A DNA stretch of 48,217 nt from NCBI RefSeq assembly GCF_002087085.1, contig NZ_MWQY01000027.1:1-48217 (forward strand). Direction: 5' to 3'. Position numbers and translations under genes: made by a program. The first letter of the stretch is position 1, and the number at the start of each line of letters is the position of its first letter. The notes beneath the pieces are model-generated. The model saw only the letters and a program-made list of their open reading frames with translations, had not been told where the DNA came from and did no database searches. Below are positions 38,599 through 41,782 of this stretch, one piece after another.

Positions 38599-39525
38599 AT
38601 GCTGGAACCTGCTCTGAAGAACCGAAAAATCGAACTCCTGGCGCAGAATTTTCGTCCCGATGAGATTGATGAAATCGGGCGGCTTCTGTTCAAAAAATAC
38701 AACAGTCACCTGCTTACAGGTACGGAGACCCACTTTACCCTGTCCCCCCGCAAATGCGCAGCAGCCCTGGTTGACGAGTGTATCGAAAAGGATCGGGTGG
38801 AAAAGCTTATTGAGCTTATTGTGAGCCTGGATGATCAGACTATCCTCGGGCGTCAGGTCAGAATCGAAGGTCTCGAGGAGTTTCTCAACAACCTGGCCCA
38901 CACGGGAACGGTCTATGATTTTCGTAAACGTAGGCTCGTCAAAGCCCGCAAGGAGCTGGACCTGCAGCCCGGCTGGGGGTCTCTGAACGAAGGAAAACGC
39001 TACTCCATTACCGTCATGAGTCTCGATGTGGCCGGTAATTCCGCCCTTGTCTCAAAATACGGCAACCGGGTCATGGAAAAGGTCTATTTTCACCTGCGGA
39101 GATTTCTCGAAAACCGGATCTACCGCTACGACGGACGTATCTGGAACTTCGCCGGCGACGGGGGAATCGTCGCTTTTACCTTCAGAGGCCACCAGGACAG
39201 GGGAGTGCTCTGTGCACTGGAAATTCAGCGATCCCTGCCGATTTTCCACCTGCAGATGGAATCTTCCCTGAAAGAGTCTATCGCCCTCAGAATCGGACTG
39301 GATACGGGAAAGCTCAAGTTCAGCAATCAGACCGGTAATATCGTTTCCGAGGTTATAAATTACGCCAGTCATCTTGAAAAGCAGAACACCTCCGCCGGAG
39401 GGGTCTCAATTTCCGGGAATCTCCACGGCGAAATCAGTTCCAGAATAGCTTCAGTTTTTGAATGCACGGGGGAATTCGAAGGGCGCCCGGCCTACTGCAT
39501 GCCGAACCGACTCGACCTGTTGTAA
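38599..39525 (+). CDS. Class III nucleotidyl (adenylate/guanylate) cyclase-domain protein with a small N-terminal helical domain
   Basis: SLDVAGNS and AGDG metal-binding aspartates, LRIGLDTG, VINYASHLEK. Confidence 0.85.
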   Translation: MLEPALKNRKIELLAQNFRPDEIDEIGRLLFKKYNSHLLTGTETHFTLSPRKCAAALVDECIEKDRVEKLIELIVSLDDQTILGRQVRIEGLEEFLNNLAHTGTVYDFRKRRLVKARKELDLQPGWGSLNEGKRYSITVMSLDVAGNSALVSKYGNRVMEKVYFHLRRFLENRIYRYDGRIWNFAGDGGIVAFTFRGHQDRGVLCALEIQRSLPIFHLQMESSLKESIALRIGLDTGKLKFSNQTGNIVSEVINYASHLEKQNTSAGGVSISGNLHGEISSRIASVFECTGEFEGRPAYCMPNRLDLL

Positions 39526-39580
39526 AGAAATAAAATATTTCCAAAAAAATGTAACTTCTGAACCGGTTTGGGGTTAGAAA

Positions 39581-39659
39581 TATTGAGAGAGTTTTCTTTT
39601 TCATTGACCTCCTTTGGCCCCCCGGGTTTTACTCCTTTTACCGGGGGGTCGCTTTTTTT
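39581..39659 (+). ncRNA. Candidate small RNA with two anti-Shine-Dalgarno motifs and an intrinsic terminator
   Basis: UUUUCUUUUUCAUUGACCUCCUUU precedes a GC-rich hairpin (39615-39651) whose loop contains ACUCCUUU, followed by U7. The 5' end is approximate. Confidence 0.55.
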
Positions 39660-39669
39660 ACCGGCCCTG

Positions 39670-40149
39670 TCATCCGGCCGGCGGAAGTCGTCGCGCCCCA
39701 AGGTAGCGGTCCCTGTAATAGGGGGAATCAAGGGATGAGATTATGATTCCCTGTCTGTTTTCCCCCGAGGCGGCATGGATAAAGCGTCTGTCCCCCAGGT
39801 AAATACCTACGTGGCTTGCGGTCCATCCTTCGGTGTTAAAAAAGACCAGGTCCCCGGGCAGCTCCTCTCCCGTTGTAACTGCGCTGCCGAAACGGTACTG
39901 GTCGATTGATCTTCGGGGAAGGTCCGGAACCCTGTCGGAATAGATCATATAGACGAAACCCGAACAGTCCATCCCTTTCAGGTTGGCCCCTCCCCAGAGG
40001 TAGGGAATGCCTTTCAGGGATACCGATTCCAGTACTACGGCCAGAGAAAGTTCCTCTTCCCCGGGCTCGGCGGACCAGGCGGCATGAAAAGACGGGAGTA
40101 TCGGAAACAGAAGTACCAGGAATATGGAAATTCTTGCGGCTGCCCTCAT
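39670..40149 (-). CDS. NlpC/P60 (C40) cell-wall peptidase
   Basis: Signal peptide; PYLWGG, DCSGF, GDLVFF, HVGIY, FIHA. Confidence 0.93.
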   Translation of the reverse strand: MRAAARISIFLVLLFPILPSFHAAWSAEPGEEELSLAVVLESVSLKGIPYLWGGANLKGMDCSGFVYMIYSDRVPDLPRRSIDQYRFGSAVTTGEELPGDLVFFNTEGWTASHVGIYLGDRRFIHAASGENRQGIIISSLDSPYYRDRYLGARRLPPAG

Positions 40150-40183
40150 ACATCAGTATTATCGGCAGCCGCGAAGCCCGGTT

Positions 40184-41782
40184 TTACAGCTTAAGAAGCC
40201 GGGCGTAGGTGTCCAGGAGATCTCCCCGTTTTTCCGCTGCCCCCAGCACCTGACTGGTGAGGATCTTTCCCAGCTGTACTCCTTCCTGGTCAAAGGAGTT
40301 GATGTTCCAGATAAAGCCCTGGAACATGACCTTGTTCTCGAAATGCGCCAGCAGAGCCCCCAGGGCTTCCGGGTTGAGCTGTTCCCCGTATATCAGGCTC
40401 GAAGGACGGCCTCCGGGAAAATTTTTGTTCAGGTTGCTGTTTTTCTTCCCCGCGGCGAAGGCTACAATCTGGGCTGTCAGGTTGGCTTTGAGCTTCTGCT
40501 GACTCGTCGAGTTCTCGTATTCGGTGTCATAGCCGGTCTGGGACTTGACGAAGCCGATAAACTGCAGGGGAACGATGTCCGTACCCTGATGCAGAAGCTG
40601 GTAGAAGGAGTGCTGTCCGTTGGTTCCGGGTTCACCGAAGATTACCGGACCCGTGGAGTACGCCACAGCGCTGCCCTCCCGGTTTACCTGTTTGCCGTTG
40701 GATTCCATATCCAGCTGTTGAAGATGGGCGGGAAAACGGTGCAGCCCCTGGCTGTAGGGCAGGATGGCCGAGACGGGATATCCGCAGATGTTGCGTTCCC
40801 ACACCCCGATAAGGGCATCCATAAGGGCCGCATTGCGCCGTACATCCCCTTCCATGGCAGCTTTATCTGCCTGGTGGGCCCCTGCAAGCAGACGCTCAAA
40901 GATCTCCGGCCCGAAGGCAAGGCTCAGTACCACGCCTCCAACGGCGCTGGTTGAGGAGTAACGGCCGCCGATATAGTCATCGATAAAAAAGGAGTCCAGA
41001 AAGCCCGGAGCACCGGCAAGGGGGCTGGTCTCGGAGGTAACAGCCACAAAGTGCCGTTCCGGATCCAGCCCCGGGATTCCCGCCGAACGCATCATTCCGG
41101 CAACCAGAGCGCGATTGGTGAGGGTCTCCTGGGTAGTACCGCTCTTGGAGACCAGGATAAACAGTGTGCGTTCAAAATCGAGGCTGCTCAGGACTTCTTC
41201 CGCGTCGTCGGGGTCCACATTTGAGATAAAGCGTGCCTCCAGCAGGGGGGACTTGAGCTCAGTGCGGCACCAGTTTTTCAGGGCCAGATACAAAGCCCGG
41301 GGACCAAGGTCTGAGCCGCCGATTCCGATCTGGACAACCGTGGAGAAACTCTTGCCCGTCGATCCGGTGATCTCTCCCGCCCGCAGCCTGCGGCTGAAAT
41401 CGGCTATCCGTTTCTGCTGCTCCCGGTAAAATGCTCCGAGATCACGGTCTTTTTCCGTAACAGGGCCCGCAAGCTCTCCCCGGGTCAGATGGTGCAGTAC
41501 CCGGCGGTCCTCGCCGGTGTTCATCCTCTCGCCGCCGGCAAGAGCACGATATTTTTCTATACATTCTGTCTCGGCGGCCAGGTCGCTCAGGAGCCGGAGG
41601 ACCTTTTCGTTGACCTCTTTGGCGGCATAATTGTAGGTAAGTCCGCCCCCGGCGGCTATGCTGCAGCTCCTGATTCTTTCCGCGGAAAGAAGATCCGGCA
41701 GGGAAAGTCGCTCTTTTCCGGAGGAGTATTCTTCCTTCAACTTCCCATATGCGTCGGTTCTGTCCAGATTAAGATATTTCAC
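40184..41782 (-). CDS. pgi: Glucose-6-phosphate isomerase
   Basis: IGIGGSDLG, SKSGTTQET, GGRYS, QQLDMESNGK, GTNGQH, FDQEGVQLGK. Confidence 0.96.
   Translation of the reverse strand: MKYLNLDRTDAYGKLKEEYSSGKERLSLPDLLSAERIRSCSIAAGGGLTYNYAAKEVNEKVLRLLSDLAAETECIEKYRALAGGERMNTGEDRRVLHHLTRGELAGPVTEKDRDLGAFYREQQKRIADFSRRLRAGEITGSTGKSFSTVVQIGIGGSDLGPRALYLALKNWCRTELKSPLLEARFISNVDPDDAEEVLSSLDFERTLFILVSKSGTTQETLTNRALVAGMMRSAGIPGLDPERHFVAVTSETSPLAGAPGFLDSFFIDDYIGGRYSSTSAVGGVVLSLAFGPEIFERLLAGAHQADKAAMEGDVRRNAALMDALIGVWERNICGYPVSAILPYSQGLHRFPAHLQQLDMESNGKQVNREGSAVAYSTGPVIFGEPGTNGQHSFYQLLHQGTDIVPLQFIGFVKSQTGYDTEYENSTSQQKLKANLTAQIVAFAAGKKNSNLNKNFPGGRPSSLIYGEQLNPEALGALLAHFENKVMFQGFIWNINSFDQEGVQLGKILTSQVLGAAEKRGDLLDTYARLLKL

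Follow-up and report, generated by a model that had tools for sequence, protein, structure and literature searches.

A predicted small RNA with two anti-Shine-Dalgarno motifs and an ECF-type promoter, conserved across the class Spirochaetia

Results

Organisation of the locus

The window, i.e. the whole stretch of DNA that was analysed, comprises 48,217 nucleotides of contig NZ_MWQY01000027.1 (assembly GCF_002087085.1). The element described here occupies the gap between a plus-strand gene and a convergent NlpC/P60 gene, the stop codon of which lies 10 nt past the U-tract of the element, and pgi follows on the minus strand (Table 1). The upstream gene had been called a cyclase, but it gives only a sub-threshold Pfam match to Guanylate_cyc (E = 0.11, 12.5 bits for a cut-off of 21.9) and the name was not retained. 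By inspection of the sequence, every plus-strand element of the original prediction was found in its place, and the stretch 39592-39615 reads TTTTCTTTTTCATTGACCTCCTTT on that strand. The arrangement of CU-rich motifs, hairpin and promoter at 39585-39659 (plus strand) is real and more than the product of chance. This interval contains no plus-strand ORF of at least 30 aa lying wholly inside it.

Table 1. Features of the locus (positions in the window)
Feature	Position	Strand	Basis or remark
Upstream gene, 308 aa	38599..39525	+	no Pfam family at E<=0.01
56-codon ORF, judged not a gene	39434..39604	-	frame not conserved
A-rich tract, UP-element-like, just 5' of the -35 box	39544..39549	+	sequence
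-35-like box TGTAAC of the ECF-type promoter	39550..39555	+	sequence and comparison
-10-like element GTT(A), with a 17-nt spacer to the -35 box	39573..39576	+	GTT itself at 39573-39575
Predicted transcription start	39582..39585	+	from a conserved G and purine run
Whole predicted sRNA	39585..39659	+	~75 nt; homologues 74-146 nt, median 88
Predicted 5' hairpin GAGAGAG / UUUU loop / CUUUUUC	39585..39602	+	minimum-energy folds; A-U and G-U pairs
Predicted single-stranded seed AUUGACCUCCUUU	39603..39615	+	core ACCUCCUUU at 39607-39615
Terminator hairpin, 11-bp G+C-rich stem, 15-nt loop	39615..39651	+	fold and covariation
Second anti-SD motif ACUCCUUUU in the terminator loop	39631..39639	+	alignment
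U7 tract of the intrinsic terminator	39653..39659	+	T7 in sequence
Convergent NlpC/P60 gene	39670..40149	-	PF00877, E = 4e-27
pgi (phosphoglucose isomerase)	40184..41782	-	PF00342

Predicted structure and strand of the RNA

The plus-strand fold has an energy of -30.1 kcal/mol (z = -3.3) and was equalled by 2 of 200 shuffled sequences, whereas the minus-strand fold is no different from its own shuffles (z = 0.05, 93 of 200). The terminator arms (39615-39625 and 39641-39651) enclose the 15-nt loop GUUUUACUCCUUUUA (39626-39640), and the 11-bp stem that they form on the plus strand includes G-U pairs. In an alignment of 28 distinct sequences, 91.4% of the cells of this stem pair and in 8 of 10 pairs both partners vary; the observed values were reached by none of 500 shuffles, and controls slid along the alignment gave 71% and 67%. 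Nine G-U or U-G cells of the alignment would become A-C mismatches if read on the other strand, and a T-rich tract follows the stem in 29/29 homologues. The claim of a plus-strand hairpin with strand-specific G-U pairs is thus upheld by the energies and by the covariation of the stem. At the 5' end a second, weak hairpin is predicted; in most of the 29 homologues it joins a purine-rich arm to the U-run, which is mostly paired (P unpaired 0.35). Locus L021, with GAAGAGGUGA/UCACCUCUUC, provides one clear compensatory case for this predicted 5' hairpin.

The core of the first CU-rich motif, ACCUCCUUU, is identical to 9 nt of the 3' tail of the 16S rRNA of the source genome itself, the 16S 3' end on contig C47 being GGATCACCTCCTTTCT. 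A CCTCCT core was located in 29/29 homologues, and ACCTCC is invariant in alignments of eight and of six sequences. The mean probability of being unpaired over the 29 homologues was 0.73 for the first motif (0.99 in the window) and 0.95 for the motif of the terminator loop, for 0.51 over the whole RNA. The loop motif is ACUCCUUUU in this genus, with one C fewer, and ACCUCCUUUU in most other families. Two CU-rich anti-SD motifs had been proposed from the sequence; both are conserved and, according to the folding model, both should be exposed. A Pfam match to Hfq is absent from the source genome (97% complete), which fits the chaperone-independent C-rich sRNAs.

On the minus strand the sequence is AAAGGAGGTCAATGAAAAAG, with an ATG kept in 26/29 homologues. 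The conserved element might then supply the ribosome-binding site and the start codon of a small protein; alternatively, it might serve as a CsrA-type leader or sponge, its two GGA motifs lying in the hairpin loop and at the SD. CsrA is encoded in the genome, and a loop GGA combined with an SD GGA resembles CsrA-regulated leaders as generally known. The equivalent frames, however, range from 0 to 56 codons in the 29 homologues (6, 6, 27, 37 and 56 codons within the genus), 3/29 have no start codon, and protein conservation beyond MKK was not detected in any of the 29, the MKK itself being shared because the DNA there is conserved. In addition to the shuffle-like fold, the plus strand is favoured by the G-U pairs, by the U-tract and by the promoter, the promoter has the same orientation as in the ECF genes relative to their coding sequence, and a spacing of 3 nt between SD and ATG is poor. 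A minus-strand element is accordingly very improbable, and the idea that the motif is simply the RBS of the 56-codon ORF fails on the same counts of codons.

Distribution and genomic context

A DNA search with a query of 361 nt revealed that only positions 39586-39660 are conserved in 5/5 other genomes of the genus and in three other families. With the covariance model R1, homologues were matched at E<=0.01 in 100 of the 151 genomes of the class Spirochaetia (78/120 of good quality, 58/87 genera), and 62 matches reached E<=1e-6. The single-contig genomes of family f34, of 2.7-2.8 Mb, carry a homologue at E about 1e-7. The conservation in relatives that the anti-SD motifs were expected to have is therefore present. 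At the gathering score, Rfam 15 gave no match in the whole window or in 15 homologous loci, in agreement with an unlisted family, and an E-value scan of 39300-39900 returned five weak matches at E<=10, none of them at the gathering score. In the literature searched on spirochete, Treponema and anti-SD sRNAs, no description of this RNA was found. The family is thus new and previously unannotated, yet of a known kind.

In 29 orthologous loci, which lie in several gene contexts and have varying neighbours in at least 7 cases, the promoter has been kept along with the body and the terminator, and this co-conservation argues for the separate plus-strand sRNA of ~75-90 nt that had been proposed. A paralogous sRNA was detected with the covariance model on contig C12 of the source genome; several genomes contain paralogues and tandem copies, and the paralogues having the same loop sit elsewhere. 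An exact-pattern scan of 185,579 species genomes yielded 48 matching stretches; for 41 the record title names a spirochete. The remaining seven (Nitrospirota, Methanosarcinales, Solobacterium, Chromatiaceae, Lachnospiraceae, Saprospirales and one bacterium) are indistinguishable from chance, for which about 3 matches were estimated. In sediment metatranscriptomes, a fraction of 0.08-0.23 of the words of 38600-40150 was present. Four metatranscriptomes gave ten short contig pieces of depth 1-7 on the flanking genes, with 39484-39640 uncovered, in standard libraries that are uninformative for an RNA of 75 nt.

A strong hairpin followed by U7, 90 nt past the upstream stop codon, might simply be the intrinsic terminator of the upstream gene, next to which the CU-rich motifs and the promoter-like box would have arisen by chance. 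This reading is contradicted by the comparative data and hardly credible: conservation within and just ahead of the hairpin far exceeds that of the flanking genes, the element is also found behind unrelated upstream genes, the promoter box is kept at a fixed distance, and the element is single-copy in the genome, as a generic terminator would not be.

In its usual position the sRNA has pfk on one side and a convergent pgi on the other, PGI being downstream in most of the 29 loci, and this order is kept across many families. The RNA could then act mainly in cis, as antisense to the convergent transcript (that of pgi, or of the NlpC/P60 gene here), which would read into the sRNA, the outcome for upper glycolysis being either cleavage of the duplex or interference with transcription. 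At L018, L023, L034 and L008 the stop codon of the convergent gene touches or runs into the 3' end of the sRNA, and in the window it is 10 nt away. As no U-tract follows the hairpin on the minus strand, convergent transcripts may run through it. Such a role is nevertheless improbable. The gap to pgi varies from 0 to about 280 nt, the sRNA occurs without pgi at L021, L029, L030, L031, L032, L033 and L037, the paralogues bearing the same loop are located elsewhere, and an antisense RNA would have no need of two conserved anti-SD motifs.

Promoter and link with an ECF sigma factor

The proposed promoter, TGTAAC-N17-GTT, was compared between homologues after alignment of the rows at the last TGT(A/T)AC. 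This box is present in 29/29 aligned sRNA promoters, one row (L031) being placed on the wrong box; GTT ends in T in 29/29 (position 25), and its G and its first T are each found in 23/29. The 12 positions before TGTAAC (-12 to -1) are A/T-rich in the column counts of the 29 homologues. A G lies 9 nt past GTT in 21/29 sequences and is followed by a purine run, on which the predicted start site is based. The motif TGT(A/T)AC-N16-18-GTT precedes 29/29 sRNA orthologues at a fixed distance, L008 having an insert of ~65 nt. For 15 of 27 weaker model matches in other families the motif was also found within 90 nt, for a chance expectation of ~0.1. Since the RNA appears to have its own conserved promoter, the other origin envisaged in the original prediction, by processing of a 3'UTR, is unlikely.

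The source genome contains eight sigma-70-family genes. In their 400-nt upstream regions, TGTAACC-N17-GTT was found only before a gene for an ECF sigma factor of 175 aa (contig C11, 5420-4893), where it ends 6 nt 5' of the ATG. This gene is accompanied by that of a membrane anti-sigma factor with an HxxxCxxC motif and, by prediction, a single membrane segment. An orthologue of the sigma factor (39-97% identity) was detected in 126/151 class genomes, and its operon with the anti-sigma factor carries the same motif in 29/30 orthologue loci, with GTT at N16-18 and the start codon ~6 nt 3' of GTT in 29/30. When a promoter matrix trained on other genera alone was run over the 4.2-Mb genome, this sRNA ranked 1st, the C12 paralogue 3rd and the ECF gene 4th. 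The orthologue is found in 96/100 sRNA-positive genomes versus 30/51 sRNA-negative ones, related genomes in these counts not being independent. These comparisons give good support to an ECF-type promoter for the sRNA, as initially supposed from its likeness to such promoters. The same motif could also be bound by a transcription factor rather than by the ECF sigma factor itself.

The sigma factor is assigned by NCBIfam to the general ECF superfamily only. The regulon of T. pallidum TP0092 (RpoE), reportedly described by Giacani in 2013, has a motif that could bear on this assignment. A TGTAAC -35 box is documented for the promoters of the ECF16 group (PMC8315932, PMC3420878). As described in these reports, the ECF16 factors SigF, EcfF and BcrS resemble the present system in the -35 element tGTAACc, in a spacer of 16-17 nt and in the autoregulation of the sigma operon, but their -10 element is CGAA, whereas the sRNA and ECF promoters studied here have GTT(T/A). 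Membership of the ECF16 promoter class, as given there by the consensus (T/C)GTAAC-N16-17-CGAA, was rejected, the -35 box fitting and the -10 element not.

Predicted targets

The seed had been described as the perfect complement of an SD followed by a start codon. This holds for the letters and not for the geometry, as the gap between GGAGG and AUG is 3 nt in the seed complement for about 5-7 nt at example real starts; moreover, the contiguous recognition of SD, AUG and Lys-Lys fits no real gene start in the genome. A genome-wide search with the 19-nt seed complement gave 18 sites at <=4 mismatches and, at <=2 mismatches, the locus itself only; the two sites with 3/19 mismatches correspond to a 21-codon frame and to a frame with a GTG start. 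The best seed duplex was predicted at -27.7 kcal/mol, versus -47.5 for the perfect complement, and the mean over starts at -14.1 versus -13.1 for shuffled seeds. The gene calls used were crude (ORFs of >=100 codons), and the statistics that involve the SD are biased because the starts were chosen by SD score.

Signal-peptide-like starts account for 39 of the top 100 duplexes, for a background of 24% and for 9-26 with shuffled seeds. The proposed action on mRNAs of exported proteins thus retains a modest enrichment, which is partly circular because the A-rich Lys codons themselves favour pairing. Among the 3538 called starts, 34 carry AAGGAGGT or AAAGGAGG, and 17 of these long-SD starts have a hydrophobic N-terminus (background 24%, p = 9e-4). 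Annotation of 20 of the 34 genes, picked with a preference for hydrophobic N-termini, revealed six periplasmic solute-binding proteins and seven more transporter components. The genes at C11:30341 and C13:54849 of the source genome are examples of long-SD genes for solute-binding proteins. As specific targets, pgi (duplex rank 1590 of 3538 starts), the anti-sigma gene (1452), the third gene of its operon (498), NlpC/P60 (2627) and pfk, for which none of the N-termini inspected begins with MKK, were considered and none stands out. The target prediction is weak and points loosely toward long-SD mRNAs, mostly those of transporters.

The failure to find a convincing single mRNA target among the genome starts and with the seed complement would also be expected if the RNA, instead of pairing with mRNAs, imitated the 16S 3' tail so as to sequester a protein or to affect the ribosome; the partner might be a nuclease of rRNA maturation, an initiation factor or some other protein that binds CU-rich RNA. 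In favour of this, ACCUCCUUU occurs twice and matches 9 nt of that tail exactly, and 5' of the first copy lie a hairpin and the sequence AU(C/U)(G)A, which bears a loose resemblance to the GGAUCA located ahead of the 16S tail. The likeness beyond the 9-nt core, however, requires a 1-nt insertion, no candidate protein partner was identified, and characterised sRNAs with exposed CU-rich motifs act on SD regions, as described for LhrC (PMC4132741) and as known for others. Mimicry of this kind is a doubtful explanation, and pairing with mRNAs is preferred.

Discussion

Taken together, the interval 39585-39659 (plus strand) probably encodes a trans-acting, SD-masking sRNA driven by an ECF sigma factor, as part of a hitherto unannotated family found in much of the Spirochaetia. 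The comparison of genomes argues for the anatomy of the gene, its conservation, its strand and a promoter in common with the ECF operon. In the mechanism that we propose, a conserved ECF sigma factor recognises the sRNA's own promoter TGTAAC-N17-GTT, and the sigma gene would be under the same promoter and apparently leaderless. The RNA would consist of three parts, namely a weak 5' hairpin, an exposed ACCUCCUUU and a Rho-independent terminator with a second copy of the motif in its loop. Once the sigma factor is activated by some signal, not necessarily the envelope stress of the original prediction, the sRNA would base-pair with mRNAs at their Shine-Dalgarno regions and so block 30S binding. 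Action by SD pairing is likewise known for RsaE/RoxS and for the anti-SD sRNAs of alpha-proteobacteria. The messages with the longest SD, here mostly those of transporters and periplasmic solute-binding proteins, would be bound best. Transcription, sigma dependence, SD occlusion and which mRNAs are targeted are the parts of this scheme that we infer.

A broader and rather unlikely proposal sees in this sigma factor and its sRNAs a class-wide switch of translational selectivity, which would act chiefly by imitating the mRNA-docking site of the ribosome. The sigma mRNA would need no SD because its start codon lies ~6 nt after the -10 GTT, making it leaderless, and the main conserved outputs of the regulon would be sRNAs displaying copies of the 16S anti-SD tail. 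These would compete with the 30S subunit for the strongest SDs, so that the abundant SD-led synthesis of transporters and envelope proteins would drop as a class, while leaderless or SD-poor messages, that of the sigma factor included, would stay translated.

To our knowledge, few regulatory RNAs have been described in spirochetes outside Borrelia. If confirmed, the present one would define a class-wide sRNA family with a defined regulator, the conserved ECF sigma/anti-sigma pair, within an ECF regulon that apparently consists largely of sRNAs, and with a testable action, the masking of Shine-Dalgarno sites by copies of the 16S tail. It would make stress signalling and post-transcriptional control of free-living spirochetes directly accessible to experiment, and would add a further independent case of the arrangement in which a sigma factor activates and its sRNAs repress, as for the enterobacterial sigma-E.

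In that system MicA, RybB and MicL constitute the repressing arm of the ECF sigma-E regulon, through which abundant exported proteins are made in smaller amounts. Similarly, the ECF motif described here precedes two sRNAs and the sigma operon, i.e. three of the four best sites of the genome. The sigma-E sRNAs possess 5' seeds specific to omp or lpp mRNAs and need Hfq, whereas the seed here is a generic anti-SD and Hfq is absent by Pfam; the MicA, RybB and MicL families were not among the five weak Rfam matches (E<=10) in 39300-39900. RsaE/RoxS of Firmicutes and Yfr1 of cyanobacteria are short Hfq-independent RNAs that are conserved throughout a class or phylum and keep a C-rich motif unpaired, either between two hairpins or within a loop. 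They differ from the spirochete sRNA in sequence, regulators and taxa, and no Rfam match to them was obtained at this locus.

The alpha-proteobacterial anti-SD sRNAs target mRNAs of transporters and solute-binding proteins. According to the descriptions in PMC4615179, PMC8034643 and 10.1101/2025.11.14.688489, cuckoo/alpha-r14, NfeR1, CcsR1-4 and AbcR1/2 present several exposed CCUCC-type motifs in loops or linkers, are induced by stress and are often multicopy. Their anti-SD motif is CCUCCUCCC, their promoters and structures are unlike those of the spirochete sRNA, and no Rfam match was found here.

The closest layout is that of LhrC1-5 of Listeria monocytogenes (RF00616), which provides an experimental precedent: redundant CU-rich sites, placed in a single-stranded stretch and in the terminator loop, block the SD (PMC4132741). 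Homology is not indicated, since the RF00616 model gives 19.5 bits for a gathering score of 110 (E = 2.4). In the account of PMC4132741, the LhrC motif is UCCC, which is also that of the RsaE/RoxS-type sRNAs of Firmicutes, whereas the spirochete motif ACCUCCUUU is the full core of the 16S tail; LhrC is controlled by the LisRK two-component system and the spirochete sRNA is placed under an ECF sigma promoter, in another phylum. As reported there, binding of any one LhrC site to the G-rich SD of a target can prevent translation, and the RNAs are induced by a regulator of cell-envelope stress. The spirochete family shares this layout, including the paralogues and tandem copies found in several genomes.

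The predicted sRNA is widely conserved in the class

Inspection of the window confirmed that all the sequence elements of the original prediction, an anti-SD motif followed by a terminator and preceded by an ECF-like promoter, are present as described (see table). The element occurs as a single copy in its own 4.2-Mb genome. The plus-strand RNA folds with -30.1 kcal/mol (z = -3.3 against shuffles) into a terminator stem of 11 bp preceded by a weak 5' hairpin; the fold of the minus strand equals that of shuffles (z = 0.05). When a 361-nt query was compared with the DNA of 40 relatives, only the part matching 39586-39660, and not its flanks, was found to be retained in 5/5 other genomes of the genus and in three further families. 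Conservation in relatives, to which the prediction had pointed as a check, is present across the class: a covariance model built from eight sequences matched 100 of 151 genomes sampled from Spirochaetia at E<=0.01 (78/120 good-quality genomes, 58/87 genera) and 62 genomes, as counted from the table of matches, at E<=1e-6. No match was obtained in families f3 (0/6), f5 (0/3) and f26 (0/6). In a sample of the phylum, 28/151 genomes were matched at E<=1e-4, and five families belonging to other classes contain weaker relatives. When one genome of each species was scanned for the exact pattern, 48 stretches emerged, 41 of them in records titled Sediminispirochaeta, Marispirochaeta, Spirochaetaceae, Spirochaetales, Spirochaetia, Spirochaetes or Spirochaetota. 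The window, the sRNA region and 15 homologous loci gave no match to any Rfam 15 family.

Positions of the sRNA, its elements and related features (plain coordinates refer to the window, C and G numbers to contigs and genomes)
Feature	Position	Strand	Basis or remark
Upstream gene	38599-39525	+	308 aa; sub-threshold Guanylate_cyc match
The sRNA	39585-39659	+	matrix site 1, score 22.1
TGTAAC box	39550-39555	+	sequence
GTT, 17 nt after TGTAAC	39573-39575	+	sequence
TTTTCTTTTTCATTGACCTCCTTT	39592-39615	+	sequence
Hairpin, loop GUUUUACUCCUUUUA	arms 39615-39625 and 39641-39651	+	sequence
T7 tract after hairpin	39653-39659	+	sequence
TGAAAC-N17-GTTTAT, 47 nt upstream of LacI-like regulator gene	C22:22108	+	matrix site 2, score 22.0
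Second sRNA candidate	C12, about 161030-160866	-	matrix site 3, score 20.4
ECF sigma gene, 175 aa	C11:5420-4893	-	sole sigma-70-family gene with motif; matrix site 4, score 20.1
Tandem members	G112:C8:21600-21850		
Tandem members	G033:C9:197179-197510		
Tandem members	G101:C95:20628-20876		
Tandem members	G142:C4:54993-55225		
Tandem members	G021:C108:7468-7668		

For the anatomy, 29 orthologues were aligned to the covariance model. A U-run followed by CAU(C/U)GACCUCCUUUU is little changed among them (CAU in 26/29), and so is the terminator loop motif (A)CCUCCUUU(U), which reads ACUCC in all five rows that belong to the window's genus. The stretch ACCUCCUUU equals 9 nt of the 3' end of the genome's own 16S rRNA (GGATCACCTCCTTTCT, contig C47). 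In the terminator stem, 91.4% of cells pair and 8/10 pairs have changed on both sides (at one position C-G 15 times and U-A 11 times, for example), values reached by 0/500 shuffles; slid registers lower the pairing to 71% and 67%. Nine stem cells are G-U or U-G, compatible with the plus strand only, and a T-rich tract lies 3' of the stem in 29/29. Folded from its predicted start, each orthologue gives an RNA of 74-146 nt (median 88). The mean predicted unpaired probability is 0.73 for motif 1, the anti-SD before the terminator, 0.95 for motif 2, its second copy in the loop, and 0.35 for the U-run, against 0.51 overall; the U-run, as 3' arm of the 5' hairpin, is therefore usually paired with a purine-rich 5' arm (GAAAGAG or GAGAGAG). 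An additional small stem, CAUCGA...UUGAUG, places motif 1 in a loop in some families.

A complementary ATG opens a frame on the minus strand, and the motif could be merely the RBS of the 56-codon ORF found there (39434-39604). Across the 29 loci, this frame extends over 0-56 codons and is devoid of a start codon in three; within the genus it counts 6, 6, 27, 37 and 56 codons, and only MKK is conserved among the loci compared. On these grounds, the ORF is not regarded as a gene, nor the motif as its RBS. The finding as a whole is real, and the predicted sRNA gene very likely exists.

Genomic context

At most of the 29 loci, the sRNA lies between pfk on the same strand and a convergent pgi, an order observed across many families (L018, L022-L028, L034-L036, L038, L039, L041, L042); other neighbours occur at at least 7 of the loci. 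Among the 46 of 56 flanking ORFs scanned with Pfam (ten were left out), 15 are PFK and 19 PGI. Throughout the genus of the window, the place of pfk is taken by an uncharacterised gene (product of 308 aa in the window, 311 aa for the genus), and a convergent NlpC/P60 gene separates the sRNA from pgi. The 'cyclase' label of the upstream gene was not upheld, its only Pfam match, Guanylate_cyc, having an E of 0.11, below the cut-off. The distance between the sRNA 3' end and the convergent stop codon varies from 0 to about 280 nt. At four loci (L018, L023, L034, L008) the stop codon of pgi adjoins this end or lies within it, and pgi transcripts may therefore run antisense through the sRNA.

Promoter and ECF sigma factor

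The claim of an ECF-like promoter is supported by the motif TGT(A/T)AC(C/T)(T/A)TT...G..GTT(T/A), found 5' of 29/29 orthologues with a spacer of ~17 nt, an A/T-rich upstream region and a conserved G ~9 nt past GTT. Among the eight sigma-70-family genes of the genome, this motif precedes only one, coding for an ECF sigma factor, as TGTAACC-N17-GTT, with TAAGAG between it and the ATG. The next gene overlaps the sigma gene (region C11:5452-4364, minus strand). Its 180-aa product, with HxxxCxxC and one hydrophobic segment, shows weak matches to anti-sigma entries of NCBIfam.

ECF orthologues (39-97% identity), set clearly apart from paralogues (34% identity or less), were identified in 126/151 genomes of the class, namely in 96/100 sRNA-positive vs 30/51 sRNA-negative genomes, related genomes not being independent. 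None was found in f3, f10, f26 or the listed genomes of f38 and f42, which are likewise without convincing sRNA matches. The motif stands directly 5' of the ECF orthologue in 29/30 loci (L119-L148), with the start codon ~6 nt past GTT. Such an arrangement of the sequence implies that the ECF gene would be autoregulated, and its mRNA is probably leaderless. In genus g28 of family f27, all four ECF-orthologue matches (G060, G127, G032, G084) carry one in-frame TAG, which could reflect a disrupted gene, a pair of genes or recoding; an sRNA match is present in only 1/6 genomes of this family.

A weight matrix was trained solely on 19 sRNA and 13 ECF promoters from other genera; its four best sites in the own genome are those of the table. 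The LacI-like gene may be another regulon member, or its site may be due to chance. The ECF link of the sRNA is considered likely, and the family is very probably under the control of an autoregulated ECF sigma factor. A tGTAACc -35 box is on record for ECF16 sigma factors (PMC8315932, PMC3420878), with CGAA as the -10 element in place of the GTT found here.

Paralogues and distant relatives

A paralogous sRNA candidate of ~125 nt was detected outside the window, on contig C12 of the same genome. It shares the promoter (TGTAACC-N17-GTTTAT) and the terminator loop (UUUUACCUCCUUU) of the sRNA and ends in U8; its body differs by an extra hairpin and by the absence of the first anti-SD motif. It is kept in the genus (L109, L110). 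The weaker model matches in other families are C12-like paralogues, often in tandem, with the promoter motif within 90 nt of 15/27. Tandem members occur as pairs 80-190 nt apart, most with their own TGTAAC promoter, and L101 perhaps carries a triplet.

In the A/T-rich family f60 of another class (L149, L150), the 5' hairpin is followed by UUUUUCAUAAACCUCCUUAUCA and by a terminator without the loop motif; the core of the related RNA is UUUUUCAUAAACCUCCUU and the promoter is sigma-70-like (TTGACT-N17-TATAAT). In f76, a TGTAAC box precedes UUUUUUUCAUGAACCUCCUU. Both relatives lie outside the class. The core U-run-CAU-N3-ACCUCCUU therefore predates the promoter type, and the f60 arrangement suggests that the family exchanged its promoter in the course of evolution.

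Putative targets and mode of action

The seed was screened against 3538 crudely called gene starts. The best duplex reached -27.7 kcal/mol vs -47.5 for a perfect match, and the mean was -14.1 vs -13.1 kcal/mol for shuffled seeds. Besides the locus itself, no genome site lies within 2/19 mismatches of the seed complement, and the two sites with 3/19 correspond to a 21-codon frame and a GTG-start frame. Real starts have a longer SD-to-AUG spacing than the 3 nt implied here. Recognition of 'SD-AUG-Lys-Lys', as originally proposed, would thus be, at most, a bulged pairing in two parts.

Hydrophobic N-termini are encoded by 39 of the top 100 starts vs 24% overall (p = 5e-4; 9-26 with 20 shuffled seeds) and by 17 of the 34 starts with AAGGAGGT or AAAGGAGG, the longest SDs in the genome (p = 9e-4). 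Twenty of these 34 genes were annotated, hydrophobic N-termini being preferred in the choice; six code for periplasmic solute-binding proteins and seven for other transporter parts (DctM twice, TctA, CstA, SBF and two ABC ATPases). The longest SDs are largely those of TRAP, ABC and TTT transporter genes, above all of their periplasmic binding proteins. Exported or transporter proteins are rather doubtful as targets. The duplex ranking gave no prominent place to pgi, the anti-sigma gene, the third operon gene or NlpC/P60. Hfq was not found in the genome by Pfam; CsrA is encoded.

The sRNA represents a new, widely conserved family built like known anti-SD repressors. For LhrC of Listeria, experiments have shown that each CU-rich site is able to pair with the SD region of the lapB mRNA and so prevent translation (PMC4132741). 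Because the sRNA has the layout of LhrC, with a weak 5' hairpin, an exposed CU-rich motif and a repeat of this motif in the terminator loop, SD occlusion would be its most plausible action, and a fairly probable one.
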